Source: Candidatus Woesearchaeota archaeon (GTDB lineage: Archaea > Nanobdellota > Nanobdellia > Woesearchaeales > GW2011-AR9). From it: a stretch of DNA of 64,000 nucleotides. This document shows, in pieces, positions 3,722 to 64,000 of this stretch. How positions within the stretch are numbered: the stretch's first letter is position 1; each line of letters starts with the position of its first letter. The notes under the pieces were generated by a model. It did not search any database, was not told the DNA's origin, and worked only from the letters and a program-made list of their open reading frames with translations. The stretch is taken from the NCBI GenBank assembly GCA_018303445.1, contig JAGVYE010000003.1, forward strand, positions 2,366 to 66,365, read 5' to 3'. The position numbers were made by a program, and so were the translations under genes.

Positions 3722-3789
3722 CTTGTCAGCTTTATTTCATACTTCAAGTGGTCTCCGCAAGTGGTGCTCCAAACACTTTTCAATAACGC
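3722..3789 (+). repeat. 68-bp conserved intergenic element, copy A. 64/68 identical to copy B at 55765..55832. Ends 50 nt upstream of a + strand start codon
   Basis: cttgtcagctttatttcatacttcaagtggtctccgcaagtggtgctccaaacacttttcaataacgc. Contains a TTTATTT TATA-like box. A partial inverted partner lies at 3630-3667. Confidence 0.6.
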
Positions 3790-3838
3790 CCTAAATTTAG
3801 GAAAAATATATAAAGATTATTTTCTTGCTATCGTAGTG

Positions 3839-9947: not shown

Positions 9948-9951
9948 GATC

Positions 9952-12240: not shown

Positions 12241-12268
12241 AAAGGTGTTCATGAAAAGGTGAAATAAA

Positions 12269-13822: not shown

Positions 13823-13859
13823 TGGGGTTAGTTTATGAGGGTGAAGATGAGGTTAGTTT

Positions 13860-24734: not shown

Positions 24735-26183
24735 ATGCTATCTCAGGATACAAAAGGACTTACGGCGAGGAAGTCGGATGATTTCTCAGAATGGTACACG
24801 CAGCTTATTCAAAAAGCGGAGCTTATCGAATATAGCCCAGTCTCTGGCTGTTACATTCTAAGGCCGAGCGCGTATCACATCTGGGAAAAAGTGCAGGAAT
24901 ATTTTGATGCTTTGATAAAAAAAGACGGTGTTAAAAATGTTTATTTTCCGTTGTTTATTCCTGAATCCTTGCTGACGAAGGAAAAAGAACATGTGGAAGG
25001 ATTTGCTCCTGAAGTAGCCTGGGTGGAAACCGGGGGCAGCAGTAAATTACAAGAAAGGTTAGCGGTGCGGCCAACTTCAGAAACAATTATGTATGATGCT
25101 TTTGCAAAATGGATTCGTTCTCATAAGGATCTGCCTTTACGCTTAAATCAGTGGTGCAACATTGTCCGTTGGGAGTTTAAACATTGCATGCCTTTCTTAC
25201 GCAGCCGGGAATTTCTCTGGCAGGAAGGACATACAGCCTTTGCGGCAAAAAAAGAAGCCGTTGCTGAGGCAGAGAAAATGTTGGATTTTTATGAACAAGT
25301 TTTTAGAGATTTGTATGCTATACCGGTGTTGAAAGGAAGAAAATCGGAAAGTGAGAAATTCGCCGGAGCTGAATTTACTCTTTCTGTGGAAATTCTTCTG
25401 CCTCAAGGAAAGGCTATTCAGGGCGCTACTTCTCATCATCTCGGCCAGCATTTTTCCCATGCTTTTGAAATCACGTTCTTAGATCAAAATCAAAAAAAAC
25501 AATATGCTTGGCAGAATTCATGGGGAATATCTACTCGTTCTATTGGCATTATGATTATGGCGCATTCCGATGATAAAGGGTTAGTGCTTCCTCCCAGAGT
25601 TGCGCAAATTCAAGTCGTGATTGTGCCGATTTTGTTTGATAAGTCTAAAGAAAGAGTGCTGGAAGTTGTAAAACAAGTTGAGAAAAGTTTACATGCCAAA
25701 CATCTTCGTGTTCATGTTGATGACCGGGAAGATTATTCTCCAGGCTGGAAGTTTAATGAATGGGAATTGAAAGGAGTTCCCATTCGTCTGGAGATTGGTC
25801 CTAAAGACATAGAGAAAAATCAAGTGACGGTTGTGCAGCGTGATCTTGGCCAGAAGGAATTTGTTCCTGTTGATGATGTAGGGTCGGAAATCGTGTTGTT
25901 GCTGGATCAAATGCAGGCCCGCCTTTTTGAAAAAGCTACTAAAGTGTTAGAAGAATCAGTCATTGAAGTTTCCACGCTGAAGGAAGCAGTGAAAGAGTTA
26001 GAGAAAGGGAAGATTATTTTTGCTCCGTGGTGTGAGTCTTTGGAATCAGAAGAGTTGCTTAAAGAAAAAACAGGAGCAAAATCATTAAACGCCCCCTTAA
26101 AGCAGCCTGCGGTGAAGGGAAAGAAATGTTTCATTACCGGAAAACCAGCTACGCAGTGGTATTATTTTGCAAAAAGTTATTGA
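24735..26183 (+). CDS. proS: Prolyl-tRNA synthetase, archaeal/eukaryotic type (class II)
   Basis: Class II motifs. LRPSAYHIWEKVQ, FRDLY..., the archaeal-type C-terminal domain and anticodon-binding region. Confidence 0.85.
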   Translation: MLSQDTKGLTARKSDDFSEWYTQLIQKAELIEYSPVSGCYILRPSAYHIWEKVQEYFDALIKKDGVKNVYFPLFIPESLLTKEKEHVEGFAPEVAWVETGGSSKLQERLAVRPTSETIMYDAFAKWIRSHKDLPLRLNQWCNIVRWEFKHCMPFLRSREFLWQEGHTAFAAKKEAVAEAEKMLDFYEQVFRDLYAIPVLKGRKSESEKFAGAEFTLSVEILLPQGKAIQGATSHHLGQHFSHAFEITFLDQNQKKQYAWQNSWGISTRSIGIMIMAHSDDKGLVLPPRVAQIQVVIVPILFDKSKERVLEVVKQVEKSLHAKHLRVHVDDREDYSPGWKFNEWELKGVPIRLEIGPKDIEKNQVTVVQRDLGQKEFVPVDDVGSEIVLLLDQMQARLFEKATKVLEESVIEVSTLKEAVKELEKGKIIFAPWCESLESEELLKEKTGAKSLNAPLKQPAVKGKKCFITGKPATQWYYFAKSY

Positions 26184-45317: not shown

Positions 45318-46712
45318 ATGTTTAACAAACTAAAAGAAAAACTCAAAAGTGCCTTAAGTATTTTTTCTAAGAAGGCGGAAGAAGCAGCAGTGCCTCTGGA
45401 AAAAGCGCAGGAAGAGGAGGAAAAAATTTCTGAAAAAGCTACGATTTCTCCAAAAGAAGAGGTCGCATCTAAAAAAGAAGCAGGAAAGAAAAAAAAGATT
45501 GAAGAAAAGAAGGACTTTTCTCCAGAAAATCTAACGGAAAAAGTTTCAAAAAAGAAAGAAGAGGCAAAAGAAAAGAAGAAAATAGAAAAAGAGAGGGAAA
45601 AAGTTGGCTTACCAGAAGCCTCGCAACAGAAGAAAGAGGTTCTAGAGGAAAAATCTGTAGAAGTTAAATTAGCCCAAACAGTTCTAGATGAAGAAAAGGA
45701 ATCTCCTTCATTCTTGGAGCGAATTAAAGAAAAGTTTAGAGGAAAGAAGAAGGAAGAAATCACAGAAGAAAAAAAAGATTTTAGAGAAAATGAAATACCT
45801 GCAGAAGAAAATTTTCCAGAGAAAAAAACAGATCAGGAAAAAACCTCTTTTTTTGGAAAAGTAAAACAAACCTTAACGACGAAGACTATTTCTGAAGAAA
45901 AATTTGAAGGATTATTCTGGGAATTAGAACTTGGGTTATTGGAAAACAATGTTTCCGTCAACGTCATTGAAAAAATTAAGGTTGATCTTAAAGAAGAATT
46001 GGTGGAGAAACCCCTGCCTTGGAATGTGGAAAGAAAAATTGAAGAGACGCTGCGCGCAACTCTTAGTACCATTTTATCACAGGAGCCAATAGATCTTTTG
46101 AATAAAATAAACGGCAAAAAGCCTTACATCATTGCTTTCTTTGGTGTCAATGGGGCGGGAAAGACCACGTCGATGGCTAAACTTGCTTATTATTTGCAGC
46201 AACATCATCATTCCGTGGTGTTGGCAGCAGGCGACACTTTTAGGGCCGCGGCGATTCAACAATTACAGGAGCATGCCGATCGTTTAAGTGTTCCCCTTAT
46301 TAAACAGAATTATGGAGCAGATGCAGCGGCTGTCGCTTACGACGCAGTGAGGTATGCGGAGAAAAATAAACTGGATGTTGTTCTCATTGATACGGCAGGG
46401 CGTCTTCATTCCAATACTAATTTAATGGCGGAGTTAGAGAAAATTATTCGTGTGGCAAAACCAGACCTTAAAATTTTTGTTGGCGAAAGCATCACTGGAA
46501 ATGACTGCATTGAACAAGCTGAGAAATTTAACCAACTTGTAGAAATGGATGGGGTAATTTTAACAAAAGCCGATGTTGACGAGAAAGGGGGAGCGCCATT
46601 ATCTATTTCTTATGTGATCAAGAAACCAATTCTTTTCTTAGGGGTCGGACAGCGATATAAAGACTTTGAACAATTTGACAAAGAAAAAATGTTAGAAAGG
46701 TTGGGAATTTAA
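45318..46712 (+). CDS. ftsY: Signal recognition particle receptor FtsY with long K/E-rich N-terminal domain
   Basis: SRP-GTPase NG domain: GVNGAGKTT, DTFRAAA, DTAGR, TKAD. Confidence 0.9.
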   Translation: MFNKLKEKLKSALSIFSKKAEEAAVPLEKAQEEEEKISEKATISPKEEVASKKEAGKKKKIEEKKDFSPENLTEKVSKKKEEAKEKKKIEKEREKVGLPEASQQKKEVLEEKSVEVKLAQTVLDEEKESPSFLERIKEKFRGKKKEEITEEKKDFRENEIPAEENFPEKKTDQEKTSFFGKVKQTLTTKTISEEKFEGLFWELELGLLENNVSVNVIEKIKVDLKEELVEKPLPWNVERKIEETLRATLSTILSQEPIDLLNKINGKKPYIIAFFGVNGAGKTTSMAKLAYYLQQHHHSVVLAAGDTFRAAAIQQLQEHADRLSVPLIKQNYGADAAAVAYDAVRYAEKNKLDVVLIDTAGRLHSNTNLMAELEKIIRVAKPDLKIFVGESITGNDCIEQAEKFNQLVEMDGVILTKADVDEKGGAPLSISYVIKKPILFLGVGQRYKDFEQFDKEKMLERLGI

Positions 46713-48229
46713 AGGAGGTTGTGTCTGGCTTTCTGATGATCATAAGTGAGGTTGGAGATTTTTCGAATAAGATCTCCGCGCGACTTAATCCAGGCACCAT
46801 AGTTCGAAGTTCTTGTTTTCTTTTCAACGATCCCAATTAAAGTATAAGCATGACGTCGTCCGTCCCTGCCTCTGGCATAGAGAATACTCATATCTCCACA
46901 TAGTCTTGCCGTGCTTCCTGTTTTGTTGTACACCAATGTTCCAGTGGGAACTCTCTCTGCTCCGGTATAAACTCTATCCCTTCCAGGAAGGGCCATTAAT
47001 CTTCGCATTTCTCTTGCTTGAGGAAGATCATCATTCCATAAAGCGTATAGGAAACGACTGTAGTCATGTGCTGAGGCTTTATTTCTGTAGGTTTGTCCTC
47101 CGCTAGGGATGTATTCTACTATAGATATATCTTTAAAGATATTTCCATAATGTTCAGTTAAAATTCTTTTCATGGCTTGAGGTCCGCCAACTTGCCGCAT
47201 TACCCAGTTTGTGGAAGCATTGTTACTTTTTTGAATCATTTTTTTCATATGCTTTTTAGCTTCTGCGTTGTATTGACGTTTTCCTTGTTGCACTAAATGA
47301 AAATAGGCGAGGGCAGCAAATGGTTTCATCATACTCGCACTCTGTCTTGGAGCGTCTTCGTTTATAGAAACAATTTTCTCTCCGGTTGTAAAGTCATATA
47401 CTGACCAAGAAGTTTGTTCATCAGCAGTGCGATGATTTTGTACATACTTTTCAATTTTTCTTTCCAGACTGTCGGGAGCAACTGGTCTCCTTGGTTCAGA
47501 AAATTTTCTGGGAGGTTTAATGGGAGGTTCTGTTTCGTCTAAGTAACTTGATTCTCCGTATTCAACTTGATTATTATTTTCCAGAATCGTGGAAGGGTTG
47601 AAACCTTTTTCTTGCAGTAATGTTTTATGCCGCTCTGCTATATTTCTCGTTGAATTCTCATCTCCACGTCGTCTCCAGACGAGAGCATATTTTCCATTTA
47701 CTCTTTCAATAACAAGGTTTTTTCCTACTTCTGGACCTAAAGTTCTATAAACTGTTTCGAAACTTCTTTTTAGAGCGTTAACACTTGTTCCTTTCTTATA
47801 TTCTACATTGAACAAGTCATGATAACCTTCATCTTTGATGATGACTGCTCTGTCAAGTTCCGCTTGCTGAAGAAGTTTGTGATGGTGTTGTGCTGTTTTT
47901 TCCGCATCAGTTTTGGACGCATTTCGGTCATAAATAAGACCAAATCTACCGGAAGTTCCTTGGACAATATGAAGTTCTCGTGCTACATCTGGACCTAATA
48001 TTCGAGCTACATCTTCTTGATAATCCAAGACGGCTTCAATATCTGGATGCCAAAGATAGGAGACATCATATTTTTCTGCTTGCGCCTGAGCCGTTGCAGG
48101 ATGGCTTGCGAGTGTTGACAAAAATGCGGCTATGCCAGCACCTAAAGCGGTATCTCTTGCCAACTGTCTTCTCGTTCTGGGACTTTCCTTCCCAATGCTG
48201 AATAATACCTCTTCTAGTAATTGTAACAT
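46709..48229 (-). CDS. Class A beta-lactamase/D-Ala-D-Ala-carboxypeptidase-like serine hydrolase with Tat-type signal and two SPOR-like repeats
   Basis: TRRQLARDTALGAGIAAF (twin-Arg). Repeats ..GRFGLIYDRNASKTDAEKTAQ.. and ..GKYALVWRRRGDENSTRNIAERH... S-x-x-K (SMMK), S-T-N, K-T-G (NKTGS) motifs. Confidence 0.65.
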   Translation of the reverse strand: MLQLLEEVLFSIGKESPRTRRQLARDTALGAGIAAFLSTLASHPATAQAQAEKYDVSYLWHPDIEAVLDYQEDVARILGPDVARELHIVQGTSGRFGLIYDRNASKTDAEKTAQHHHKLLQQAELDRAVIIKDEGYHDLFNVEYKKGTSVNALKRSFETVYRTLGPEVGKNLVIERVNGKYALVWRRRGDENSTRNIAERHKTLLQEKGFNPSTILENNNQVEYGESSYLDETEPPIKPPRKFSEPRRPVAPDSLERKIEKYVQNHRTADEQTSWSVYDFTTGEKIVSINEDAPRQSASMMKPFAALAYFHLVQQGKRQYNAEAKKHMKKMIQKSNNASTNWVMRQVGGPQAMKRILTEHYGNIFKDISIVEYIPSGGQTYRNKASAHDYSRFLYALWNDDLPQAREMRRLMALPGRDRVYTGAERVPTGTLVYNKTGSTARLCGDMSILYARGRDGRRHAYTLIGIVEKKTRTSNYGAWIKSRGDLIRKISNLTYDHQKARHNLL

Positions 48230-48360
48230 TGTAATTCTTAGTTATTCCTCTAGCTTTTTTTCTGGCGTTATGCTTACTCTAGTTGATCGAGTTTCTTGGT
48301 TCTTCAAAAGAGGTTTTTCTTTATAAATCTTTCTGATTTTTAACCACTTACAAATAACAA

Positions 48361-48549
48361 CTAACTCTGCATTCTTCTTCGCCAGCCTTCTTCACTGATA
48401 GAAGTGTCAATACCTATGCCACTGGAAGGATTCACAGAAGTAATTTTAATAGAAAGGCCTTCTTCTACTTTAGCCGTCTCTTGATTTTTGGCAATCATTT
48501 CGCAACAGGCTTTTTTCAAACGTGGTAAATTTAAGTCAGGTTCGATCAT
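48361..48549 (-). CDS. Small hypothetical protein (TusA-like fold?)
   Basis: 62 aa. LNLPRLKKACCEMIAK resembles the TusA L-x-L-x-G-L-x-C-P motif but with CC. Weak. Confidence 0.25.
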   Translation of the reverse strand: MIEPDLNLPRLKKACCEMIAKNQETAKVEEGLSIKITSVNPSSGIGIDTSISEEGWRRRMQS

Positions 48550-48610
48550 AATCGTTTCTTAAATCTTTTTTTCTATTTAAATCTTTCGGTATTTTGTTAC
48601 TAATAAATGG

Positions 48611-50041
48611 TTAATTTTCAATGAACTGGTTATAAAGAGCATTAACTGCGGTGCGGCCTTGCGATTGAGGGATAACATAAATCAAGCATCGTCTTTTTAC
48701 GCCCTTCGACTCAGCAATAATTTCTATTTTATTTTCTGCTAAGGTGCTTAGGATTAGTGCTTCAAGGTGGTGATCACGGGCAATTCCCTTTCCCGCCATG
48801 ACAACTATTCCTAAATTATCCGTAAATTCCACATCTTTTTTTCTTCTTTCGGTATTGGGAGGAATGACGGTGTCAGCCAGCTCTTGTTTAATTTCACTCA
48901 CCTTTGCGGCAATTTGATCTTGTTCAAGAATTACAGAAATGTCGTCAATGCCACAAGGAGGAAATTCGACGGGGATCTCTCTTCTGGCAAATACGTCCAG
49001 CATCTCATGGAGAAGGCCGATTCTTTCATTGACACCTGATTCTTCAATGCTGAAAGCACAGAAACCGGGTTTATAGGCAATGCCAATAATTGGTTTTTGT
49101 GGATCACTTACTCTATCTTCTACTACTCGTGTCCCTTCTTCAGGGTAAGCGTCTGTACTCCTGATGTGTAAAGTGATAGGAGTTCCTTGAAGAGGTAGTA
49201 TGGCTTCTTGTTGTAGAATCTTAAATCCGGAATATGCAAGGTCACGTAATTCTTTTTGTGTCATTTCACGAATTGGTTTAGCCCCCGGCACGAGAGCTGG
49301 ATCAGCGGCCAAAACAGAGTAATCCGAAAAGTTTTCATAGATTTTAGCTCTTACACCAACAGCAACTTCTGATCCGGTTCTGTCCGATCCTCCTTCATTC
49401 AGAAGACCGATGAGGCCTTCTTCTGTGGCTCCATAAAATCCAGGAATAACTTTCTGCTTATAGGGATATTTTTTGGAAAGTGCCAAAAGCAAGTCATACG
49501 TGACAGGAAGCACTCGGGCGTTTCGCAATGATCCACTAACTTTTATGAATTTTGTTGGATCTATAAACTGTGCACTTATGTCTTCTGCGAGAAGAAATCC
49601 TTGCCAGTATTCTCCGGCCGCAAGAAGATTTGCCCAGTAGGCTTCATGATCTTTTATTTCCGAGGTAAAACGGTTACGAAGGTCAGAAGCAACAGTTTTT
49701 TTGGAACCAGGATAAATATTTTCATAGCGTTGGGCAATAGCATCTAGGAGTTGTGCTGCGGCATCAGTGAGTCTTCTCTCCATTCCCGCCAGATCCTTAA
49801 GAAGTTTTGTAACTTTTGGATAGATTACAGGATCGTGATCTTTTTTATATGAACCAGGTGCGGAAACAACAATATATTCCCTTTTCCCGTCATCGTTTAT
49901 GATTCTTTTAACGTGATCAACTTTCTCTCTCGTTGCGAGAGAGGTTCCTCCAAATTTGCAGACGATCGTTTCGCTCATGGGACAGTTAAAGAAAATTAAG
50001 TGAATTTTTTTACCTTCTGCTTGGAGAAACTTGAGGAGCAA
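48611..50041 (-). CDS. Amino-acid kinase family protein, aspartokinase-like with C-terminal regulatory (ACT-like) region
   Basis: N-terminal IVCKFGGTSL...YIVVSAPG. 476 aa. Confidence 0.6.
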   Translation of the reverse strand: MLLKFLQAEGKKIHLIFFNCPMSETIVCKFGGTSLATREKVDHVKRIINDDGKREYIVVSAPGSYKKDHDPVIYPKVTKLLKDLAGMERRLTDAAAQLLDAIAQRYENIYPGSKKTVASDLRNRFTSEIKDHEAYWANLLAAGEYWQGFLLAEDISAQFIDPTKFIKVSGSLRNARVLPVTYDLLLALSKKYPYKQKVIPGFYGATEEGLIGLLNEGGSDRTGSEVAVGVRAKIYENFSDYSVLAADPALVPGAKPIREMTQKELRDLAYSGFKILQQEAILPLQGTPITLHIRSTDAYPEEGTRVVEDRVSDPQKPIIGIAYKPGFCAFSIEESGVNERIGLLHEMLDVFARREIPVEFPPCGIDDISVILEQDQIAAKVSEIKQELADTVIPPNTERRKKDVEFTDNLGIVVMAGKGIARDHHLEALILSTLAENKIEIIAESKGVKRRCLIYVIPQSQGRTAVNALYNQFIEN

Positions 50042-50351
50042 CTTCTGGCGTTGATTTTAGTTCAATATTAATATTACAGGTTGCCCCGTACGTTATCCTG
50101 TCTCCTTCAAATTTGTATCCTTCTAATACTCTCCAAATTCCATTTTCTGGGTCGTATCCACATCTTTGGCTTTGAATGTCATAAATCTTTTTTGGATCCA
50201 AGTTTAATTGATAAAGATCAAATCTTCTTGTCCCTACTTGGATGTTATCAGAAAGAGCCCACTCTTGAAAGTGTCTGGCAGTGTACCCCGCGGCAGCTAT
50301 AACCAGAGCAGCTACTCCTATTCCGCCTCGTTTTATCCGTTGTGAAACCAT
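50010..50351 (-). CDS. Small secreted hypothetical protein
   Basis: N-terminal hydrophobic segment GIGVAALVIAAAGY. 113 aa. Confidence 0.3.
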   Translation of the reverse strand: MVSQRIKRGGIGVAALVIAAAGYTARHFQEWALSDNIQVGTRRFDLYQLNLDPKKIYDIQSQRCGYDPENGIWRVLEGYKFEGDRITYGATCNINIELKSTPEVAPQVSPSRR

Positions 50352-50475
50352 TTTTATAATTCCTCCTATGAACTATTTTTACTTTGTTGTAGTAACTATA
50401 TAAAAATCTTTTGTTTGTATCGGCTTCTATTTCCTTCGCCGTAATCTTTATATAATCCTCTTCTTCAAAATTTTT

Positions 50476-51747
50476 ATGACTTCCTTTTATATCCATACTT
50501 CTGGTTGTTCAGCAAATCAAGCTGATTCAGAGCAGATGGCGGGTTTGCTGCAGCAGGCTCAGTTCGAGTTAGCTTCTTCTATGGATGATGCGCATATCGT
50601 GATTTTTAATACTTGTACTGTTAAATCTCCTTCGGAAATGGATTTTTTTCATACTCTGGAACAATTTAGAAAGCAATATCCTCATAAAATAGTGGTCATA
50701 ACGGGGTGTATACCTCAAGCTGATCCACAAAAACTTAAAGAGTATTCTCTCATTGGCACGAAGCAGATTCACAACATCGTTCAAGTTGTAGAAGAAGCTC
50801 TTCATGATAATGTCTTGCAGATGTTGAATGACGACGAGATGCCGCCTTTAAATCTGCCCAGAGTGCGAAAAAATCCAATCGTTGAGATTCTTCCTATAAA
50901 CAGGGGCTGTTTAGGAGCATGCACGTTCTGCAAGACAAAGAAGGCGCGGGGAAGTTTAGTTTCTTATCCTCTCTCAGAAATAATTCCAGAAGTTACAACG
51001 GCTCTGCGTCAAGGAGTGAAGGAAATTTGGCTGACATCACAAGACACGTTTTGCTATGGTTTTGATATCGGTACGGATTTGCCGACACTTCTTCAACACC
51101 TGGTGGCCTTGCCGGGAGATTTCAAAATTCGTGTGGGAATGGGAAATCCGGATCATATGCTCAAAATTGGTGATCGTTTGATTGAGATGTACAAAAATCC
51201 GAAAATTTTCAAGTTTTCGCATCTTCCCCTGCAAGCGGGACATGATGATGTTTTAGAACATATGAGAAGGCATTATACTGTTAATGACTTTTGCTACACC
51301 GTGCGCAAGTTTCGTAAGGAGATACCAGAACTAAATTTAATGACGGACATTATTGTTGGGTATCCTATTGAAACAGAGGAACATTTCTGGGGAACGTTGG
51401 AAGTAGTGAGAAAAGTAACTCCTGATTCCATTAATATTTCCCGTTTCTGGCCACGACCAGGAACGCCGGCAGCAGAGTTGAATGAGTTGCCGGGAGACGT
51501 TGTTAAGCATCGCTCTCGGGTTCTTACCGATATTTTTCACAATATTTCTCTTTTGCAAAATGAGCGCTGGTTGGGATGGAAGGGGACGATTATAATCGAT
51601 GACCAAGGCATGGAGAAAAATCAATGGATAGGAAGGAATTATGCTTATAAACCAGTCCTTGTAGAAGGAAATTATAAACTAGGAGATATTATTTCTGTCC
51701 AGATAAAGAAGGCACAGAAGTTTGATTTAGTTGGAGAAGTAGTTTAG
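50476..51747 (+). CDS. MiaB-like tRNA methylthiotransferase (archaeal e-MtaB/CDKAL1-type), radical SAM
   Basis: N-terminal MTTase domain (IHTSGCSANQADSE). Radical-SAM CLGACTFC. C-terminal TRAM domain. Confidence 0.8.
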   Translation: MTSFYIHTSGCSANQADSEQMAGLLQQAQFELASSMDDAHIVIFNTCTVKSPSEMDFFHTLEQFRKQYPHKIVVITGCIPQADPQKLKEYSLIGTKQIHNIVQVVEEALHDNVLQMLNDDEMPPLNLPRVRKNPIVEILPINRGCLGACTFCKTKKARGSLVSYPLSEIIPEVTTALRQGVKEIWLTSQDTFCYGFDIGTDLPTLLQHLVALPGDFKIRVGMGNPDHMLKIGDRLIEMYKNPKIFKFSHLPLQAGHDDVLEHMRRHYTVNDFCYTVRKFRKEIPELNLMTDIIVGYPIETEEHFWGTLEVVRKVTPDSINISRFWPRPGTPAAELNELPGDVVKHRSRVLTDIFHNISLLQNERWLGWKGTIIIDDQGMEKNQWIGRNYAYKPVLVEGNYKLGDIISVQIKKAQKFDLVGEVV

Positions 51748-51815
51748 ATTTTTTTTCCTTGATATTTACTATTTAGTAGTAAAATTTTTAAATAAATGGA
51801 TTTATTTCAGGATTC

Positions 51816-52853
51816 ATGAATCATTTAGGTACAAAGATTATGGAAGCCCTTCAAGGGCTCGATAAAGTATATGCTCCGATAAAAGCTGAATTAGGCGCCT
51901 TGGAACATAAAATAACTGCAGGACGCCAGTCTGTGGAAGACTTACAACGTTACGGAGAACTTGACTTTGCCTGTAGGCCTTTTTTAGAAGTAGTTGAAGG
52001 GCTAATATTTGTACAAGAGCTCATGAAAGAAGCGGGTGATAAAGTATTCAACAGAGAACTTGTTTTAGAAGCAGAAAGATATTTAGCTAAAACTTCTGAC
52101 ATTCTCTTACAACACAGCTTCTCACAACCATATGATTCTCATAATGCTGTTTTAACTCTTGAGATTGGGCAAGGAAAAGGCGGTTTAGAAAGAGTTTTAC
52201 GAGATTTGATTGGGGCTTATGATAAATTTACTGCGAGAAAAGGCTTAAGTCTAGATGAGGTTGAAGTCGGTGATAGCTATGACCGAACAATTAGGGTTAT
52301 AGGAAGAAATTCTTATGGCCTCTTCAGAACAGAGCATGGTGTCCATCGTTTTATTTATTATGTTGCAGATGGAAAGAAACAAACAGGGTTCATAACTGTT
52401 ACAGTAGTACCTGAAATAGAAAATCCTGAAATCGTTCTGAATGAAAAGGATCTTAGGTATGAGTTCCTTAAAGCTACAGGGCCTGGCGGTCAACATAATC
52501 ATAAAAATGCGACTGCGGCACGTATTACACATCGTCCTTCGGGCTTATCTGCCATTGCTCGCTCACGTTCCCGTGCACAAAGTATCGCCAGTGCTAAAGC
52601 AGTCTTAACTTCGAGAGTTCAACAATTATCAACTTCTTCTCGAGACGGTCTTCTAGAAAGTTTTCCTCCTCGAATAGATCCAAGCTATGGAAGTTGTCGT
52701 ACACGAACATACGATTTTACAGGTAACTTTATTAGAGATGACCGATCGGAGGTTCTCTCTACAGATATAGATGCTTTTTTCAAAGGAATTATAGATCCTT
52801 TTATTTACGCTGCTCATGGTATTCCTTTTTCCGTAGGTTTGAACAGTTTGTAA
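51816..52853 (+). CDS. Bacterial-type class-I peptide chain release factor homolog (RF-1 domain with GGQ). No PxT/SPF decoding motif
   Basis: EFLKATGPGGQHNHKNATAARITHRPSG matches the bacterial RF1/RF2 GGQ region. RTRTYDFTG matches RNRTYNF. Domain-2 region reads YYVADGKKQTGFITV where RF1 has PAT and RF2 has SPF. Confidence 0.65.
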   Translation: MNHLGTKIMEALQGLDKVYAPIKAELGALEHKITAGRQSVEDLQRYGELDFACRPFLEVVEGLIFVQELMKEAGDKVFNRELVLEAERYLAKTSDILLQHSFSQPYDSHNAVLTLEIGQGKGGLERVLRDLIGAYDKFTARKGLSLDEVEVGDSYDRTIRVIGRNSYGLFRTEHGVHRFIYYVADGKKQTGFITVTVVPEIENPEIVLNEKDLRYEFLKATGPGGQHNHKNATAARITHRPSGLSAIARSRSRAQSIASAKAVLTSRVQQLSTSSRDGLLESFPPRIDPSYGSCRTRTYDFTGNFIRDDRSEVLSTDIDAFFKGIIDPFIYAAHGIPFSVGLNSL

Positions 52854-53090
52854 GACGGATGCTGTTCAAGGAACGAGTGATTTAAGCTGAAGTTCTCATT
52901 TTCTTAGTAAAAAAGAAGAGGGTGAGAGGCAACTATGAACCAACACACCCCCTTCTTTTTGAGAAAATAATCAAAAATCATTCACGGATTGAACAGCATC
53001 TTCTTTTTGGGGTTCTCTTCTAAAACCAGAAGTTTTTTATATCTCACAATTTTATTTCTTTAAAAAAAGTTAGGAATAAAAGGTGAAGAT

Positions 53091-55760
53091 GTGGGAAAAG
53101 TATTTTTACGTTCATTAGAAGGTAAGGAACCTTCATATCATGCTATTTCTGATAAAGAAGTTTTAAGTCTTCTCCATACGCATGAAAAAGGACTCCCAGA
53201 TCATGAAATTGAACAGCGTTTACATGATTTTGGGTTTAATGAATTACAAGCGGAAATTCCCGTAAGTGCGGTGAAAATCCTTTTAGATCAATTCACTTCT
53301 CCTTTAATCTGGATACTTATGGTGGCTTTGGCGATTTCTTTTTTCTTGGGAGAGCACATCGACGCGATTGTTATTCTAATTATCATTATTGTTAATGCTG
53401 GTTTAGGATTTCTTCAGGAATATAAAGCTGAAAAGTCTATCGAAGCGTTACAGAAGTTAGTTTCTCTTAAAGCGACAGTTATTCGCGATGGGAAAGAACA
53501 AAAAATTGACAGTAAACTTCTTGTTCCTGGTGATATTATTTTACTGGAAACGGGGGATAAAGTTCCTGCGGATGGGCGTCTTCTAGAAATTTATAGTATG
53601 CATACTCAAGAAGGGCCGCTTACTGGCGAATCACAACCAGTTACGAAAAAACTGGACCTTTTTCCAGAGAAAACTCCTCTTGCTGATCGGGAAAATATGG
53701 TTTATGCTTCCACTATTATAGCTAGTGGCCGGGGAAAAGCGGTTGTAACCACGACGGGAATGAGAACTCAAGTCGGAAAAATAGCTCGACTCATTCAAGA
53801 GTCACATGAAAAATTAACCCCCTTACAAAAGAAACTGCGTAGTTTAGGGAAATATCTTACCGTTATTGTTGTTATCGTTGCTGTGATTGTCTTTCTCGTT
53901 GGTGTTTTAACTGGACAGAATGCGACGGTGATGTTCTTAACGGCGATTGCCTTAGCGGTGGCGGCAATTCCTGAAGGATTGCCGGCGGTTATCACTATTT
54001 CGTTAGCTTTAGGTGTTCAAGCCATGATTAAAAAAAACGTCCTCATCCGTCGCTTGCCGTCAGTAGAAACTCTGGGCAGTGTGAGTGTTATTTGTACTGA
54101 TAAGACAGGAACACTTACCCATAATCAAATGACAGTAGTCAAAATTTGGGTAAATAATAGTATCTATGAAATTACTGGTTCTGGATACTGCCCTCATGGA
54201 ACTTTTTTAATAAATAAGAAGTTAGTAAATCCTGATCCATTGCAACAAATACTTAAGATTGGGATGCTTTGTAATGATGCCAAATTTCAAGGAAAGGAAG
54301 ATAATAGAGAAGTTATTGGTGATCCTACGGAAGCGGCTCTTATTGTCTCTGCAGAGAAAGCAAGCTTACTTTTATCAGAGATCTTAAAAGTTGAACCGCG
54401 TGTTGATGAAATTCCTTTTTCTTCAGAAAGAAAAATGATGACGACAATACATAAAGCTAAAAAAGGCCCCATTTCCTATACCAAAGGTTCTCCAGATGTC
54501 GTTTTGAAAAACTGTGACCGGATTCTTGTCAACGGACGTATTTTAAGGCTTAATAGGGAGTTTCTGAAAGAAATTGCGAAGCAAAATGAAATTTTTGCTC
54601 AGGAAGCTCTTAGAGTATTAGCGATGGCTTATAGTGATCAAATAGGGAAGAAAGAGGAAGTTGAGAAAAAAATGATTTTTGTCGGTTTACAAGCGATGAT
54701 CGACCCTCCCCGCGATGAAGTAAAAGGAGCGATTGCCAAATGCCACGAAGCGGGAATTCGTGTCATTATGATTACGGGGGATCAAATTACGACAGCAAAG
54801 GCGATAGCGACAGAACTAGGAATAAAAGGAAAAGCAGTACTTGGTGAAGAAATAGAAAAAATAGATTTGGAAAAAGAAATTAATAATATCGGCATTTTTG
54901 CTCGTGTCAATCCTGAACATAAGTTGCAAGTTGTCAAAGTTCTTAAAAAGCAAGAGCATGTCGTCGCTATGACTGGTGATGGAGTAAACGATGCCCCGGC
55001 CTTGAAAAAGGCTGATATTGGCGTTTCAATGGGTATTGCCGGAACAGATGTGGCAAAGGAAGCCTCAGATATGATTCTTACCGATGATAATTTTACTTCT
55101 ATTGTTAATGCCGTTGAGGAAGGGCGGGGAATTTTTGATAATATTCGTAAATTTGTTAATTATCTTTTATCTAGTAATTTAGGGGAAATTACAGCAATCT
55201 TATTAGCCTCGTTGTTTAAGCTGCCACTGCCTCTCACGGCAATCCAGCTGTTATGGGTGAATTTAGTTACTGATGGTCTGCCGGCAACGGCCTTAGGTTT
55301 AGATCCGCATGCGAAAGAGATTATGAAGCGAAAACCGCGCCCGGCCATGGAAAGTATTCTCTCTAAAGAATTGCGGCAGGATATCCTCATCTTTGGAGTA
55401 TTAGTTGGCATTGGAACAATCATCTTGTTCTGGCTTTATCAGGAATCTCCATTAATAAAAGCACAGACGATGGCCTTTACTTCACTTGTTACCTTTGAAA
55501 TCGTACGCTTATACACAATTCGTTCTTCCTATAAGATTGGTATTTTTAGTAACAAATGGCTTGTCCTCGCAGTTATAGTTTCCATTTTACTTCAATTAGC
55601 AACGATTTATACTCCGCTCAATGCCATTTTTAAAACCACCCCTTTAGAGTGGATGGATTGGGGCGTTATTGCTATCGTTTCTATAGTTCTGTTACTGCTT
55701 CATAAACTGTATAGAGTAATTCTTAATTGGGGAAAAAAAGAGGAAGTTCTTAGTAAGTGA
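53091..55760 (+). CDS. P-type cation-transporting ATPase (type IIA, Ca2+-ATPase-like)
   Basis: CTDKTGTLT phosphorylation motif, TGES, MITGD, GDGVNDAPALKKADIG, ~10 TM helices. Confidence 0.9.
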   Translation: MGKVFLRSLEGKEPSYHAISDKEVLSLLHTHEKGLPDHEIEQRLHDFGFNELQAEIPVSAVKILLDQFTSPLIWILMVALAISFFLGEHIDAIVILIIIIVNAGLGFLQEYKAEKSIEALQKLVSLKATVIRDGKEQKIDSKLLVPGDIILLETGDKVPADGRLLEIYSMHTQEGPLTGESQPVTKKLDLFPEKTPLADRENMVYASTIIASGRGKAVVTTTGMRTQVGKIARLIQESHEKLTPLQKKLRSLGKYLTVIVVIVAVIVFLVGVLTGQNATVMFLTAIALAVAAIPEGLPAVITISLALGVQAMIKKNVLIRRLPSVETLGSVSVICTDKTGTLTHNQMTVVKIWVNNSIYEITGSGYCPHGTFLINKKLVNPDPLQQILKIGMLCNDAKFQGKEDNREVIGDPTEAALIVSAEKASLLLSEILKVEPRVDEIPFSSERKMMTTIHKAKKGPISYTKGSPDVVLKNCDRILVNGRILRLNREFLKEIAKQNEIFAQEALRVLAMAYSDQIGKKEEVEKKMIFVGLQAMIDPPRDEVKGAIAKCHEAGIRVIMITGDQITTAKAIATELGIKGKAVLGEEIEKIDLEKEINNIGIFARVNPEHKLQVVKVLKKQEHVVAMTGDGVNDAPALKKADIGVSMGIAGTDVAKEASDMILTDDNFTSIVNAVEEGRGIFDNIRKFVNYLLSSNLGEITAILLASLFKLPLPLTAIQLLWVNLVTDGLPATALGLDPHAKEIMKRKPRPAMESILSKELRQDILIFGVLVGIGTIILFWLYQESPLIKAQTMAFTSLVTFEIVRLYTIRSSYKIGIFSNKWLVLAVIVSILLQLATIYTPLNAIFKTTPLEWMDWGVIAIVSIVLLLLHKLYRVILNWGKKEEVLSK

Positions 55761-55764
55761 TGAT

Positions 55765-55832
55765 CTTGTCAGCTTTATTTCATACTTCAAGTAGTCTCCG
55801 CAGTTGGTGCTCCCAACACTTTTCAATAACGC
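55765..55832 (+). repeat. 68-bp conserved intergenic element, copy B (see 3722..3789). Ends 47 nt upstream of the FKBP start codon
   Basis: cttgtcagctttatttcatacttcaagtagtctccgcagttggtgctcccaacacttttcaataacgc. Confidence 0.6.
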
Positions 55833-55878
55833 TTCGCAAAGAAAAGGCTTATAAAGTTTCCTAAAAAATCGAGCTTCT

Positions 55879-56559
55879 ATGGGAGAAATAGTGTATCATC
55901 ACGATTTTATTGAAATAGATTATACTGGAAAACTCTTAGATGGTATGGTATTTGACACTACTGATGAGAGTATCGCAAAAAAAAATAATCTTCATTCAGA
56001 AAAAGCAGTATATACGCCTTCCGCGATCTGTGTAGGAGAAAAACAAATTCTTCCTGGTTTGGATGAGCAGCTCGAAGGGAAAGAAATTGGAAAGCATTAT
56101 ACCGTTAAGTTACAGTCTGAAAAAGCTTTTGGCAAACGAGACATAAAAAAGATGCGTATCGTGTCCATGAGTACATTTAAAGAACATGATGTCCAACCTC
56201 AGTCGGGGTTACAAATTGATGTGGATGGAGAATTGGGAATTATTGCTCGAATTTCTGGAGGGCGGATCATTGTTAACTTTAATCACCCTCTTGCCGGGAA
56301 AGAAGTGACCTATGAATTTGTCATGAGAAGGAAAATTACAGAGACGGCAGAAAAAATAACGGCTTTCTTCCATACTTTGTTCAAAATTCCTCAAGAACAA
56401 ATTACGGTTGAAATTAAAGAAGGCCAGGCGGCGGTAAAAATACCAGTAGCTTTTCCTCATGAAATTGCTGAAGCAATTGGAAAAAAAGTCACAGAATTAG
56501 TGACAGAGGTGAAAAGCATCGAGATAAAAGCAGCCAAAGAAGAAAAAACTTCTTCATGA
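55879..56559 (+). CDS. FKBP-type peptidyl-prolyl cis-trans isomerase (archaeal long FKBP/SlyD-like with IF insert)
   Basis: DFIEIDYTGKLLDGMVFDTT, GLDEQLEGKEIG, NHPLAGKEVTYEF are FKBP-fold signatures. Confidence 0.8.
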   Translation: MGEIVYHHDFIEIDYTGKLLDGMVFDTTDESIAKKNNLHSEKAVYTPSAICVGEKQILPGLDEQLEGKEIGKHYTVKLQSEKAFGKRDIKKMRIVSMSTFKEHDVQPQSGLQIDVDGELGIIARISGGRIIVNFNHPLAGKEVTYEFVMRRKITETAEKITAFFHTLFKIPQEQITVEIKEGQAAVKIPVAFPHEIAEAIGKKVTELVTEVKSIEIKAAKEEKTSS

Positions 56560-56625
56560 TCACCACTGTTAGAGTTCAATAATCTTTATATATCCAATCT
56601 TCCCATCCCTTCTTAATAAAAAGGG

Positions 56626-57786
56626 TTGAAGGTTATGGATAATTATGCTCTTCAAAATAGTAATTCTCAAAATAGTAATTCTCAACACTATCCTATTATC
56701 ACTAATGCTCGGGAAGTATCTCCTTTAAAATCACATCGTGATATTGATGAAGAACTTCAACAGCTCATTGCTAGTCATAAAACACGTATTAAAGTAATTG
56801 GTTGTGGTGGAGCTGGAAATAACACCATCAACAGAATCTCTGAAGTTGGTATTAAAGGAATAGAAACTATTGCCATTAATACTGATGCCCAAGATTTATT
56901 GTATACTTCTGCGGATAAGAAAATTCTCATTGGGAAAGAGTTAACACAAGGGCTAGGTGCTGGTTCTAATCCCAAAATTGGTGAAGAATCAGCAAAAGAA
57001 AACGAACATGACATTAAAAAGTCACTTGAAGGATCAGACCTGATCTTTATCACCTGTGGTTTAGGAGGGGGAACAGGGACAGGAAGTGCTCCTTTTGTCG
57101 CTCAAGTGGCAAAAAAAATGGGAACAATGTCCGTAGCCATAGTTACGATGCCATTCGCCATGGAAGGAACACATCGCTTTGAAAACGCCATGATCGGGTT
57201 AGAGAAATTGGAACAAAGTGTGAACACTTTAATCGTTATCCCTAATGAAAAGCTCCTTGAACTTGCGCCTCATTTACCATTACAAACGGCCTTTAAGGTA
57301 GCTGATGAAATTCTTACCAATGCTGTAAAAGGCATTGCCGAACTCGTAACAAAAACAGGATTGGTAAACCTAGATTTTGCGGATGTTAAAGCGATTATGA
57401 GTGAAGGAGGAGTAGCCATGATTGGTGTCGGTGAATCTGACTCAGATAACAGGGCCGAAGAATCAGTGTTGAAAGCCTTAGAAAACCCTCTTATTGATGT
57501 TGACATTTCCAAAGCCACAGGCGCTCTCATAAACATTTCCGGCGGAGAGAATTTAACGTTAGACGAATCCAGAAAGATTGTCGAAAATGTTGCCGAGCGG
57601 CTTGATGGGCGGGCAAAAATTATCTGGGGAGCACAGATTTACAAAGATCTTGACAAGATCGTCCGCACTATGATCATCATTACAGGTGTGAAATCAGATC
57701 AAATTTTTGGCGAGCAACATCAACTGAAGATGGAACGGAAGAAAGTTATGAAATCTGAATTAGGCATTGATATTGTGGACGAATAA
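56626..57786 (+). CDS. ftsZ: Cell division GTPase FtsZ (paralog 2)
   Basis: GCGGAGNN, GLGGGTGTGSAP. Extended N-terminus. Confidence 0.9.
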   Translation: MKVMDNYALQNSNSQNSNSQHYPIITNAREVSPLKSHRDIDEELQQLIASHKTRIKVIGCGGAGNNTINRISEVGIKGIETIAINTDAQDLLYTSADKKILIGKELTQGLGAGSNPKIGEESAKENEHDIKKSLEGSDLIFITCGLGGGTGTGSAPFVAQVAKKMGTMSVAIVTMPFAMEGTHRFENAMIGLEKLEQSVNTLIVIPNEKLLELAPHLPLQTAFKVADEILTNAVKGIAELVTKTGLVNLDFADVKAIMSEGGVAMIGVGESDSDNRAEESVLKALENPLIDVDISKATGALINISGGENLTLDESRKIVENVAERLDGRAKIIWGAQIYKDLDKIVRTMIIITGVKSDQIFGEQHQLKMERKKVMKSELGIDIVDE

Positions 57787-61334: not shown

Positions 61335-62902
61335 ACTCCCGTTGATCCTGCGGGAGATTGCTGCTATGGGAGTTCGATTAAGCCATGCAAGTCAGAGGGC
61401 TGTCGCAAGACAGCACAGGCTGAATGCTCAGTAACACGTCAATAATCTGCCCTAAGGCTCAGGATAACCATGGGAAACTGTGGATAAAACTGGATAAGGG
61501 ATTGGTACTGGAATGTCCTTTCCTCTAAAGGTAACACCTTAGGATGAGTTGGCGGCCGATTAGCTTGTTGGTAGGGTAACGGCCTACCAAGGCAACGATC
61601 GGTACGGGCCGTGAGAGCGGTAGCCCGGAGAGGGGTACTGAGACACTGACCCCAGCCCTACGGGGTGCAGCAGGCGCGAAAACTTTACAATGTACGTAAG
61701 TGCGATAAGGGAACTCCCAGTGCTCATGCATAAGCATGGGCTTTTGCCAAGCGCAAATAACTTGGAGAATAAGTGGTGGGTAAGACGGGTGCCAGCCGCC
61801 GCGGTAACACCTGCGCCACGAGTGGCAATCGCTTTTATTGGGCCTAAAGCGTTCGTAGCCGGATGAGAAAGTCTTGAGTGAAATCGTTGCGCTTAACAAA
61901 ACGGCGCGCTTGAGATACTACTTATCTTGGGACCGGGAAGCGTTAGGGGTATTCCTGAGGGAGCGGTAAAATGCAATAATCTCAGAAGGACCACCTGTGG
62001 CGAAGGCGCCTAACGAGAACGGGTTCGACGGTGAGGAACGAAAGCTAGGGGAGCAAACCGGATTAGATTCTGGGTCTTTTTGTTGTTGTATAGGTTATTA
62101 TTTTGTCTGTTTGCGAAATTTACGATGATAAAATAAACTGATCAAAGGGCACCAGCTAATTACCCGAGTAGTCCTAGCTGTAAACGCTGTGTACTAGATG
62201 TTGCATATTCTTCGTGAATGTGCAGTGTCGGAGTGAAGACATTAAGTACACCGCCTGGGAAGTACGGTCGCAAGGCTGAAACTTAAAGGAATTGGCGGGA
62301 GAGCACCACAAGGGGTGCGGCGTGCGGTTTAATTTAACTCAACGCAGTGCATCTCACCAGTAGCGACGGCAGAATGATGGTCAGTCTGAAGGGCTTACCA
62401 AACGAGCCGAGAGGTAGTGCATGGCCGTCGTCAGCTCGTGCCGTGAGGTGTCCTCTTAAGTGAGGTAACGAGCGAGACCCATACCTATAATTGCCAGCGG
62501 GTGCTACGGCATGACCGGGCACATTATAGGGACTGCCTGGGAAACCAGGAGGAAGGTGTGGGCAACGGTAGGTCTGTACGCTCCGAATCTACTGGGCTAC
62601 ACGCGCGCAACAATGGCGAGAACAATGGGATGCAACACCGAAAGGTGAAGCTAAACCTCCAAATCTCGTCTTAGTCTAGATTGAGGGTTGTAACTCACCC
62701 TCATGACACCGGAATCCCTAGTAATCGGGCTTCAACATGGCCCGGTGAATATGTCCCTGCTCTTTGCACACACCGCCCGTCAAACCAACCGAGTTGGGTC
62801 TAGGTGAGATGTATCTTTGAGGTATATCGAATCTAGATTCGGTGAGGTGGGTTAAGTCGTCACAAGGTAGCCGTAGGGGAACCTACGGCTGGATCACCTC
62901 CT
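61335..62902 (+). rRNA. 16S rRNA (archaeal) with a ~93-nt insertion at 62069..62161
   Basis: 5' end TCCCGTTGATCCTGCGGGAG. Archaeal 515-region CAGCCGCCGCGGTAACACC. 3' end GGATCACCTCCT. GGATTAGAT|...|ACCCGAGTAGTCC is interrupted by an AT-rich insert. Confidence 0.9.
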
Positions 62903-62960
62903 TTTTTTATTTACTCTCAGAGTAAGTAAAAGTACTCAGTTAGAGTACATATATGTACCT

Positions 62961-63046
62961 GGGCCCGTAGCTCAGGGGTAGAGCGCCTGCCTTGCAGGTC
63001 AGTCCTAGAACGCAGGAGGCCTCGGGTTCAAATCCCGACGGGTCCA
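62961..63046 (+). tRNA. tRNA-Ala (TGC) in the 16S-23S spacer, with a 14-nt intron (62997..63010) at the canonical 37/38 position
   Basis: GGGCCCGTAGCTCAGGGGTAGAGCGCCTGC-CTTGCA[ggtcagtcctagaa]C-GCAGGAGGCCTCGGGTTCAAATCCCGACGGGTCCA. Cloverleaf intact once the intron is removed. No encoded CCA. Confidence 0.85.
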
Positions 63047-63206
63047 TTCCCTATGGGGAAAGAACGTTCCTGAAAATCCTTCTGGATTTCTGGGACACGA
63101 CGTTATCGACAACAACGTTGTTGGTAGCGATTGGTTGAGTTTGATGGAGCATGTATTCAACATGCGAGATAACATCATAATAATGAGCCATATGTAGATC
63201 AAAGTA

Positions 63207-64000
63207 CATCTAGGCATGCTGCTAGATGGATGACTCGGTTCAAAACGCCGATGAAGGACGTGACAAGCTGCGAAAAGTTCCGGCGAACTGAACGTAAGTG
63301 TTGAACCGGAAATTTCTGAATGGGACTTCCCATAACATACCCTTTGGGGTAAGGGAACGCAGGGAATTGAAGCGTCTTAGTACCTGCAGGAAGAGAAATC
63401 AATTGAGATGCCGTGAGTAAGAGCGACCGAAAGCGGTGTAGTCCAAACTGAATCCGTCATAGTAATGTGATGGAGATGTGGTGTTACGGACTTCCTTTTC
63501 CATCATTATTCTGACTTGAAGTTCTCTGGAAAGAGGCACGATACAGGGTGATAGTCCCGTAAAGGTAAGAATGATGATGTTGGAAGTATCCTGAGTATCA
63601 TACCTTGGAAATGGTGTGAGAAGATGGGGGGCATTAACCTCTAAGACTAAATACGTTTTGAGTCCGATAGAACATAGTACCGCGAGGGAACGTTGAAAAG
63701 AACCCCTGACCGGGTGTTAAAAGACTCTGAAATCTAGCAGCTATAGTATGGTAGGGCATTTCGGTGTTCTACCGTGCTCTTTGGATAAAGCGCCAGGGAG
63801 TGTGCTTCTGTGGCAAGGATAACCTGAAGAGGGGAATCCATAGGGAAACCAAGACTCCGCACGCAAGGAGGGAGGCGGTATGAAAGTGCCGTAAGTCACA
63901 GGGGCATGACCTGAAGCCGGGTGATCTACTCCTGGGTAAGGTGAAGCGGGGGTAAAACCTCGTGGAAGCCTGAAGAGGTTCTGCGAGCAAGCGTTCTTCT
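63207..64000 (+). rRNA. 23S rRNA, 5' partial (continues beyond the window)
   Basis: GGATGACTCGGTTC...CGATGAAGGACGTG...AAGCTGCGAAAAG and GTACCGCGAGGGAA are 23S domain-I signatures. Confidence 0.8.

Follow-up and report, generated by a model that had tools for sequence, protein, structure and literature searches.

A divergent family of bacterial-type class-I release factors lacking the stop-codon tripeptide in Woesearchaeota

Results

A gene of bacterial type in an archaeal chromosome

Analysis of a 64-kb stretch of DNA of Candidatus Woesearchaeota (hereafter, the window) disclosed an archaeal, tripeptide-less clade of the bacterial class-I release factor (RF) superfamily, apparently undescribed so far. 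Its representative in the window is a resident chromosomal gene of this small-celled DPANN archaeon. The encoded protein is homologous to the bacterial factors RF1 and RF2, lacks their stop-codon tripeptide, and is folded, in its predicted model, as a four-domain class-I RF. The family to which it belongs evolves under selection that is purifying but relaxed. We give a probability of roughly one half to the proposal that these proteins are accessory peptidyl-tRNA hydrolases which either do without a stop codon or have an altered specificity, and which act on archaeal ribosomes that are stalled or abnormal.

The coding sequence occupies positions 51816..52853 of the plus strand, exactly as first noted in the preliminary description of this DNA. 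It is complete, starts with ATG, and encodes 345 amino acids (aa) followed by a stop codon. The protein is identical to the NCBI entry MBS3116127.1, a “PCRF domain-containing protein” of Candidatus Woesearchaeota archaeon. The entire coding sequence was assigned to a divergent bacterial-type class-I RF paralogue by combining Pfam and NCBIfam models, a phmmer search of PDB sequences, an AlphaFold2 (AF2) model, Foldseek comparisons and the NCBI identity.

Membership in the superfamily was determined with the Pfam models PCRF (PF03462) and RF-1 (PF00472) at their gathering cut-offs, a check suggested already in the preliminary description. Both domains score above the cut-off, PCRF with 35.8 bits (cut-off 24) and RF-1, at aa 204-276, with 50.6 bits (cut-off 35). 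Curated NCBIfam models of particular subfamilies also matched, but none of them reached its cut-off. The prfB model (RF2, TIGR00020) gave 135.4 bits versus 370, and the two prfA models (RF1, TIGR00019 and NF001859) gave 99.1 and 107.2 bits versus 423 and 400, respectively. The prfH model (TIGR03072) gave 48.3 bits versus 166.65, aligning with aa 184-276 only, and the ArfB model (ArfB/ICT1, NF006718) gave 21.5 bits versus 100. The window protein is thus homologous to RF1, RF2, PrfH and ArfB, and is a member of none of these subfamilies.

In the phmmer search against PDB, RF2 of T. thermophilus matched aa 66-332 of the window protein (E=1.9e-29), while the alignment with the prfA HMM spans aa 7-332. 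The AF2 model, built from the family alignment of 27 sequences, has a pLDDT of 86.2 and a pTM of 0.80. Its top Foldseek matches in PDB are free forms of RF2 (2ihr and 1gqe) and RF1 (1rq0), aligned in full length; the alignment with RF2 2ihr comprises 341 columns (E=1e-20). The structural matches also include mtRF1. Pfam domains, RF2 alignment and the archaeal contig, taken together, bear out the claim from which this work departed, that an archaeal genome carries a GGQ/RF-1-domain homologue of bacterial class-I RFs without PxT or SPF.

Domain organization and sequence motifs

The protein had been described as aligning with domains 2-4 of RF1/RF2. All three are present, and the description turned out to be incomplete, as the match to the prfA HMM that begins at aa 7, the AF2 model and Foldseek reveal domain 1 as well. 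Domain 1 (aa 1-101; 51816..52118, plus strand) is a three-helix N-terminal bundle, with AF2 helices at aa 2-34, 40-73 and 80-101 (pLDDT ~90). Its presence follows from the three helices and from the full-length Foldseek alignment to RF2 and RF1, and the span of the prfA HMM alignment is in agreement. Domain 1 of bacterial RFs is the part oriented towards the L11 stalk and RF3.

Domain 2, the codon-recognition domain (aa 107-203; 52134..52424, plus strand), was delimited by Pfam, RF2 alignment and conservation. Framework residues of the RF1/RF2 decoding domain are retained in it, namely D107, G163, E173, G175, H177, R/K178 and P199. Its recognition loop YYVADGKKQTGF (aa 181-192; 52356..52391, plus strand) is shortened, according to both the RF2 and the family alignments. 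In the phmmer alignment to PDB, the RF2 segment “RPSPFDASGRRHTSF” is paired with “YYV---ADGKKQTGF”, in which a deletion of 3 residues takes out SPF; PxT is absent from the loop as well. Arg, universal in front of the RF tripeptide, is replaced by Tyr181 in the window protein. The third stop-codon base is read in RF1/RF2 by a conserved Thr, and its equivalent is kept as Thr190, with the Ser that follows this Thr lost or changed.

The GxGGxE motif at the alpha5 tip of RF1/RF2 reads U1, although it is also described as reading the first two stop-codon bases. An alignment-independent motif scan detected a possible intact copy, GKGGLE, at aa 120-125 of the window protein (52173..52190, plus strand). 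In the same kind of scan, the pattern GxGGx[ED] was found in 1 of 29 family members, i.e. exclusively in the window protein, versus 91 of 98 other RFs. In alignments, GKGGLE is displaced by two residues from the alpha5-tip position. Retention of this GxGGxE-like motif is a counterpoint to a codon-independent reading of the window protein.

Domain 3, the peptidyl-tRNA hydrolase (RF-1) domain (aa 204-290; 52425..52685, plus strand), was defined by the Pfam RF-1 match at aa 204-276 and by conservation. The catalytic GGQ (G224, G225 and Q226; 52485..52493, plus strand) is evident in the sequence and in the family alignment. Residues N229, R236, H239, P241, T242, R251, S252, A260 and L264 of the hydrolase domain are largely kept. 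Domain 4 (aa 291-335; 52686..52820, plus strand), outlined by RF2 alignment and conservation, comprises RTRTYDF and IRDDRS. These segments match “IRTYNF...DHR” of RFs, with conserved R297, Y299, D308 and R310. All strings quoted in the preliminary description were located in the protein, GPGGQHNHKNATAARITHRPSG at aa 222-243, YYVADGKKQTGF in the recognition loop, and RTRTYDF at aa 295-301. The C-terminus (…AAHGIPFSVGLNSL) is not basic.

The gene is a single ORF, without a +1 frameshift site. A TATA-box-like element, TTTTTAAATAA, was read by eye at 51785..51795 of the plus strand, about 26 nt upstream of the ATG; such an element suggests, and would fit, an archaeal promoter and a leaderless mRNA. 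A sigma-70 scan around the gene gave no promoter-like site upstream of it, and the single match, located inside the ORF, was below chance expectation. No intrinsic terminator was found in a scan of the same surroundings.

Family size, relationships and distribution

An exhaustive phmmer search through 1.84 billion cluster representatives (clusters formed at 50% identity) retrieved ~30 representatives at E-values from 1e-63 to 1e-31, while thousands of ordinary RFs begin at ~1e-25. The window protein is therefore not a one-off, but one of a family of ~30 clusters. A contig scan using an 8-sequence alignment and a strict pattern recovered four family loci, and a metagenome scan provided two new loci only. 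No additions came from a profile search with the family alignment in a database of 5.8 billion proteins, in which ordinary bacterial RFs dominated.

Neighbour-joining (NJ) analysis of 26 family members, 16 RF1 and 25 RF2 sequences over 327 columns grouped the family as monophyletic in 99 of 100 bootstraps. The mean distance inside the family (1.67) exceeds the distance between RF1 and RF2 in this set (1.46). Distances to RF2 (2.07) and RF1 (2.25) place the family slightly nearer to the former, and each of the 27 members tested had prfB as its top curated model. With the family HMM, members score 176-407 bits, more than 190 bits over the bacterial-RF HMM, save for the divergent L016, a borderline member with 176 bits on the family HMM and 110 bits on the bacterial one (+66). 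Ordinary full-length RFs favour the bacterial model by more than 100 bits, while short GGQ-domain fragments are not separated by this pair of HMMs.

Members of the family are all devoid of PxT/SPF, owing to a deletion of 3-4 residues. A new motif, GEHGVHRxxY..GKxQTG, is conserved in its place throughout the family. The GG of the catalytic loop is invariant. Gln follows it in 19 of 26 representatives (73%), while the remaining seven carry Ser (4), Thr, Gly or Arg.

Every member with a known genomic context or source name is archaeal, and most of them come from Woesearchaeota/Nanoarchaeota. As an illustration, members were found on Candidatus Woesearchaeota MAG contigs of 234, 339 and 81.5 kb, and one on a 240-kb contig that also encodes an archaeal histone and includes an operon of ribosomal proteins. 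Further member contigs hold S8e, DUF655, archaeal-type ProRS and TrmB, and Cdc6/Orc1 was observed on contigs of other members. Source names in NCBI are “Candidatus Woesearchaeota archaeon”, with the longest contig of 843 kb, on which MBT3406997.1 is encoded, and “Nanoarchaeota archaeon”. One divergent member is located on a contig binned as Methanosarcinales.

Genomic residence

An archaeal SSU rRNA (1417 bits) is encoded on the strand of the gene, within positions 61335-64000 of the window, together with a tRNA-Ala that contains an intron and with the beginning of an archaeal LSU rRNA. This rRNA operon is located 8.5 kb downstream of the RF gene, on the same contig. The 16S decoding nucleotides contacted by RFs (530 loop, A1492 and A1493) are canonical in the window rRNA. 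The gene is surrounded by housekeeping genes. Genes for RpoE/Rpb7, FKBP26, Taw1, an archaeal-type ProRS and two FtsZ proteins are likewise found in the window.

The composition of the gene is typical of its surroundings. GC consistency, listed for checking in the preliminary description, is in line with the window (0.394 versus 0.410 +/- 0.027), and so is codon usage (0.196 versus 0.202 +/- 0.031). Furthermore, three contigs from independent assemblies of different samples are at least 99.9% identical to positions 46039-57104 of the window and collinear with it, including both gene junctions. An assembly chimera or a bacterial contaminant is ruled out by the collinear assemblies, GC content and codon usage, and the rRNA operon on the contig. 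The option of a contig chimera, raised at the outset, was for this reason abandoned, also in view of homologues residing on further contigs of archaea, as long as 843 kb, and of the identical NCBI protein, which comes from a Candidatus Woesearchaeota MAG.

Selection, gene neighbourhood and genetic code

In one closely related pair of members that carry GGS (P0002/P0003), dN/dS is 0.30 over the gene and 0.21 in domain 3. The adjacent ProRS gene of the same two genomes has a dN/dS of 0.048. Comparison of the two genes indicates that selection on the RF gene is purifying, but falls far short of the constraint on a core translation gene.

The neighbourhood was explored in nine distinct loci by all-vs-all BLASTP of ORFs of at least 60 aa located within ±7 kb, and no recurrent partner was revealed. 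Sharing was limited to the L004/L005 synteny and to a TrmB-type regulator in two loci only. A conserved operon partner, such as RtcB, an ArfA-like adaptor or PrmC, was rejected as absent from the nine loci in this BLASTP search. Conserved neighbours that could lend contextual support to a function are thus lacking in these loci. Toxin-antitoxin or reverse-transcriptase genes occur near some of the family loci. Membership in a defence system was also considered and discarded, as no PADLOC match was obtained.

Long ORFs in the window terminate with TAA (24), TGA (9) and TAG (3). Use of all three stop codons gives no sign of a recoded genome in need of a special factor, and a recoded genetic code was accordingly dismissed. 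A motif scan for aRF1 in the 64-kb window and in fragments of other genomes (up to 20 kb) found none, these regions being too small to be informative.

Discussion

Origin of the family

Proteins that terminate translation are unrelated in bacteria (RF1/RF2) and in archaea and eukaryotes (aRF1/eRF1). Judged from the sequences, the best and the most economical reading of the family's origin would be that the Woesearchaeota lineage received an RF2-type gene by ancient horizontal transfer. A horizontal origin is favoured by the best scores on prfB, obtained for each of the 27 tested members, and by the restriction of the family to one DPANN group. After the transfer, the gene would have lost canonical stop-codon reading, with the A-site-binding body and the GGQ loop kept.

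The preliminary description had listed an ArfB/PrfH-like rescue factor derived by horizontal transfer among its options. The transfer is supported by the same two observations, but the ArfB/PrfH-like label does not suit a protein with domain 1 and the whole codon-recognition domain, without a basic tail or RtcB, and with scores far below the cut-offs of both models.

Comparison with known release factors and their paralogues

The closest likeness of the family in terms of architecture is to RF2 (prfB) and RF1 (prfA). They have in common the four domains and their fold, the GGQ catalytic loop, the decoding framework (E.GVHR, Thr190 and P199), and the RxY...D.R segment of domain 4. The family differs from them in being without SPF/PxT, in the alpha5 tip that is not conserved and, in the window protein, in Tyr instead of the universal Arg. 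It is also archaeal and much faster evolving, and the window gene is without the +1 frameshift site.

PrfH (RFH), a bacterial RtcB2-associated RF paralogue, is ~200 aa long and without domain 1, and RtcB is its constant partner, while the window protein of 345 aa has the three-helix domain 1 and no RtcB. Common to both are a retained GGQ and the absence of the stop-codon tripeptide (PMC9304027; PMC1586002). PrfH represents an RF paralogue without codon-reading elements, in which peptide release takes place only on a special state of the ribosome (PMC9304027).

With ArfB/YaeJ, ICT1 and C12orf65, which hydrolyse peptidyl-tRNA without a stop codon, the window protein shares the GGQ domain. Those proteins are stand-alone GGQ domains that probe the empty mRNA channel with a basic C-terminal tail, whereas the window protein has a full codon-recognition domain and a C-terminus that is not basic. 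More similar in extent is mtRF1, a full-length paralogue of the RF1/RF2 type with remodelled codon-recognition motifs and retained GGQ. In mtRF1, insertions in the tripeptide loop and in the alpha5 tip are present, and the remodelled motifs read non-standard stops. The archaeal family has a deletion instead, and belongs to another lineage and to another host ribosome.

Plant PrfB3 is an RF2 derivative that lost both the tripeptide motif and GGQ and stabilises an mRNA. The family is comparable to it as an RF2 derivative without the tripeptide motif, which in the case of PrfB3 acquired a new role; in contrast to PrfB3, most archaeal members kept GGQ. Finally, baeRF-1 proteins are archaeal-type RF1 homologues in bacteria (Burroughs & Aravind 2019, PMC6514570). 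They form a conceptual mirror image of the family described here, in that an RF moved across domains of life and became an accessory paralogue that never displaced the native factor, although that transfer went the other way and involved an unrelated fold.

Proposed function and its alternatives

For the family, we infer ribosome binding, hydrolysis, stop-codon independence and a rescue role. Proteins with an intact four-domain body should still dock in the ribosomal A site, so that the GGQ loop would reach the peptidyl-transferase centre. Having lost the tripeptide “anticodon” and, family-wide, also the alpha5-tip motif, they would release nascent chains from archaeal ribosomes in the absence of a canonical stop codon, e.g. 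from those that are stalled or otherwise abnormal. They would do this as non-essential factors working beside the normal archaeal aRF1 and not replacing it. Relaxed constraint, patchy loss of Gln and the lack of any sign of recoding point to an accessory factor and not to the main termination factor, and together with the precedent of PrfH (PMC9304027), they favour an accessory hydrolase.

Absence of the catalytic Gln in ~27% of cluster representatives weakens a uniform role in hydrolysis. Mutants of RFs in which Gln is changed to Ser or Ala keep hydrolytic activity in vitro. We know of no demonstration that a bacterial-type RF is compatible with the archaeal ribosome. The newly conserved GKxQTG loop with Thr190 may serve to read a specific ligand or codon, and not “nothing”. 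The broader proposition, that Woesearchaeota/DPANN domesticated a bacterial-type class-I RF for stop-codon-independent or newly specified peptide release or rescue on archaeal ribosomes, is put forward somewhat more tentatively than the accessory hydrolase.

Among alternatives, a dedicated termination factor with altered codon specificity, comparable to mtRF1, could complement or replace aRF1 at a particular stop or quasi-stop signal. It would be in accordance with retention of all four domains, including domain 1, with the newly conserved loop motif and the preserved third-base Thr, with GKGGLE in the window protein, and with mtRF1 among the structural matches. We nevertheless find it improbable. 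Core termination factors evolve slowly, whereas dN/dS is 0.30 here versus 0.05 for ProRS, and distances within the family surpass that between RF1 and RF2. Moreover, the family as a whole does not conserve the alpha5-tip motif, Gln is absent from ~27% of representatives, each of TAA, TGA and TAG is used to terminate ORFs in the window, and the loop was altered by a deletion and not by insertions as in mtRF1. Equally improbable is a PrfH-like damage sensor shaped by biological conflict, which would recognise a decoding centre cut by ribotoxin or modified, and would release the peptide to allow ribosome repair. Loss of codon-reading elements with GGQ kept, as in PrfH (PMC9304027), fast evolution of a small and patchy family, and toxin-antitoxin or reverse-transcriptase genes near some loci would be in keeping with such a system. 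Against it are the prfH HMM score of 48 bits versus 166.65, confined to the GGQ domain, the presence of domain 1 that PrfH does not have, nine loci without RtcB or any other recurrent neighbour, the lack of a PADLOC match, and the position of the window gene among housekeeping genes.

In 7 of 26 representatives, S, T, G or R stands in place of Gln, which opens the question whether the family could be made up of RF-derived regulators that bind ribosomes or RNA without catalytic activity, like plant PrfB3. The GGS pair is indeed under purifying selection in domain 3 (dN/dS 0.21), which implies that something other than Gln is conserved there. This alternative appears even less probable than the former two, given that GG is invariant, that N229, R236, H239, P241, R251 and S252 are largely kept, and that GGQ is perfect in the window protein. 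The least credible is an artefact or a relic, i.e. a chimera, a bacterial contaminant or a functionless decaying remnant of a recent transfer. It could be prompted by the nearest characterised relatives, which are bacterial, and by fast evolution, but is effectively refuted by three independent assemblies that match at 99.9% or more and are collinear at both junctions, by the archaeal rRNA operon on the contig, by GC content and codon usage typical of the window, by intact ORFs in ~30 diverged lineages that are archaeal wherever the context is known, and by a dN/dS of 0.30, below 1.

Novelty and significance

A bacterial-type RF domesticated in this way, if confirmed, would be the first known case of such a factor at work on a ribosome of archaeal type. 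With it, archaea would have a direct-hydrolysis route of rescue, as a mirror image of the archaeal-type baeRF-1 of bacteria. Ribosome rescue is poorly understood in archaea, and genomes of DPANN are highly reduced. To our knowledge, archaea lack a rescue route by direct hydrolysis, and accessory RF paralogues that crossed domains of life are known in one direction only, or into organelles.

The broadest survey of RF evolution covers RF1, RF2, ArfB, PrfH, organellar forms and archaeal-type RFs in bacteria (PMC6514570), and an archaeal clade of bacterial-type RFs is not described in its text. Nothing on such a family was found in two papers on gene transfer in DPANN (PMC8204110 and PMC7414124), or in keyword searches of the literature. 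A 2026 preprint on Nanobdellota mentions prfB merely in passing and does not describe the family.

A family with a rebuilt decoding head would show that the bacterial RF scaffold fits the archaeal ribosome, and would represent a natural experiment on what an RF body does without its tripeptide “anticodon”. Archaea may, in this respect, possess an unrecognised route of ribosome rescue or quality control. There is also a practical consequence for annotation, because members of the family now carry generic RF2 or PCRF labels, being listed in databases as “peptide chain release factor 2” or “PCRF domain-containing protein”.

Genomic neighbourhood of the family genes

Genes of the translation apparatus lie close to several members of the archaeal family of diverged bacterial-type class-I release factors that lack the PxT/SPF tripeptide. 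In two related genomes (loci L004 and L005), an archaeal-type prolyl-tRNA synthetase (ProRS) gene, located on the opposite strand, adjoins the family gene or is one gene off; the corresponding stretch in the window is 24735-26183. At other loci, MetRS, SerRS or a tRNA methylthiotransferase is found a few kb from the family gene. BLAST clustering of neighbours within ±7 kb disclosed no recurring family except in the L004/L005 pair. In these small, translation-rich genomes, the proximity of translation genes to the family genes is probably due to chance.

Release-factor-like proteins at the edge of the family

Among weaker matches in the phmmer search of cluster representatives with the window protein, P0096, P0101, P0103 and P0147 are release-factor-like, with a short or aberrant recognition loop and without PxT/SPF. 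They are not members of the tripeptide-less archaeal family as delimited here. A divergent family member of 398 aa is encoded at 4862-6058 of L016, a contig assigned by binning to 'uncultured Methanosarcinales archaeon'. It is characterized by an N-terminal extension and by a recognition loop without QT, and its gene adjoins a topoisomerase-like gene and SMC. This points either to a range of the family beyond DPANN or to mis-binning of the contig.

Indels in near-identical contigs

Contigs L001 and L003, which derive from other samples and are nearly identical to the window, differ from it by indels at 51473/51474 and 54409-55305. Comparison of the window with these contigs revealed a 51-bp insertion in a MiaB-like radical-SAM gene (440 aa versus 423 aa), and the P-type ATPase is broken into two ORFs by small indels in both L001 and L003. 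These differences represent either strain variation accompanied by pseudogenisation or assembly errors.

Ribosomal RNA locus

The 16S rRNA gene (61335-62902) is 1568 nt long. Because the archaeal model has 1478 positions, about 90 nt of insertions reside somewhere in the gene; none occurs in the alignment to the model up to approximately model position 724. In the 3' region (62853-62869), the near-universal AAGTCGTAACAAGGTA is replaced by AAGTCGTCACAAGGTA, with the altered base at ~62861. This corresponds to a change of A1499 (E. coli numbering) to C, while A1492 and A1493 are unchanged. The change is close to the decoding/P-site region, and the 'universal' 1492R primer site is mismatched at this base.

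For the 16S-23S spacer tRNA (62960-63047), ARAGORN gave an unknown anticodon. Inspection by eye identifies it as tRNA-Ala(TGC) with an intron of ~15 nt directly 3' of the anticodon.

Other genes in the window

Two FtsZ paralogues (23050-24117 and 56626-57786) are located within 35 kb. A minimal nucleotidyltransferase ORF (NTP_transf_2/Polbeta) and an overlapping 175-aa ORF without any Pfam match (together 2213-3275) may constitute a toxin-antitoxin-like pair. At 3761-16331, six genes in a row encode large proteins of 479-987 aa that are predicted to be surface-located or secreted, comprising LamG, NosD/beta-helix, DUF4215 repeat, MopE-like and cadherin-like/Big_9 domains; such a series is characteristic of the cell-surface arsenals of DPANN.
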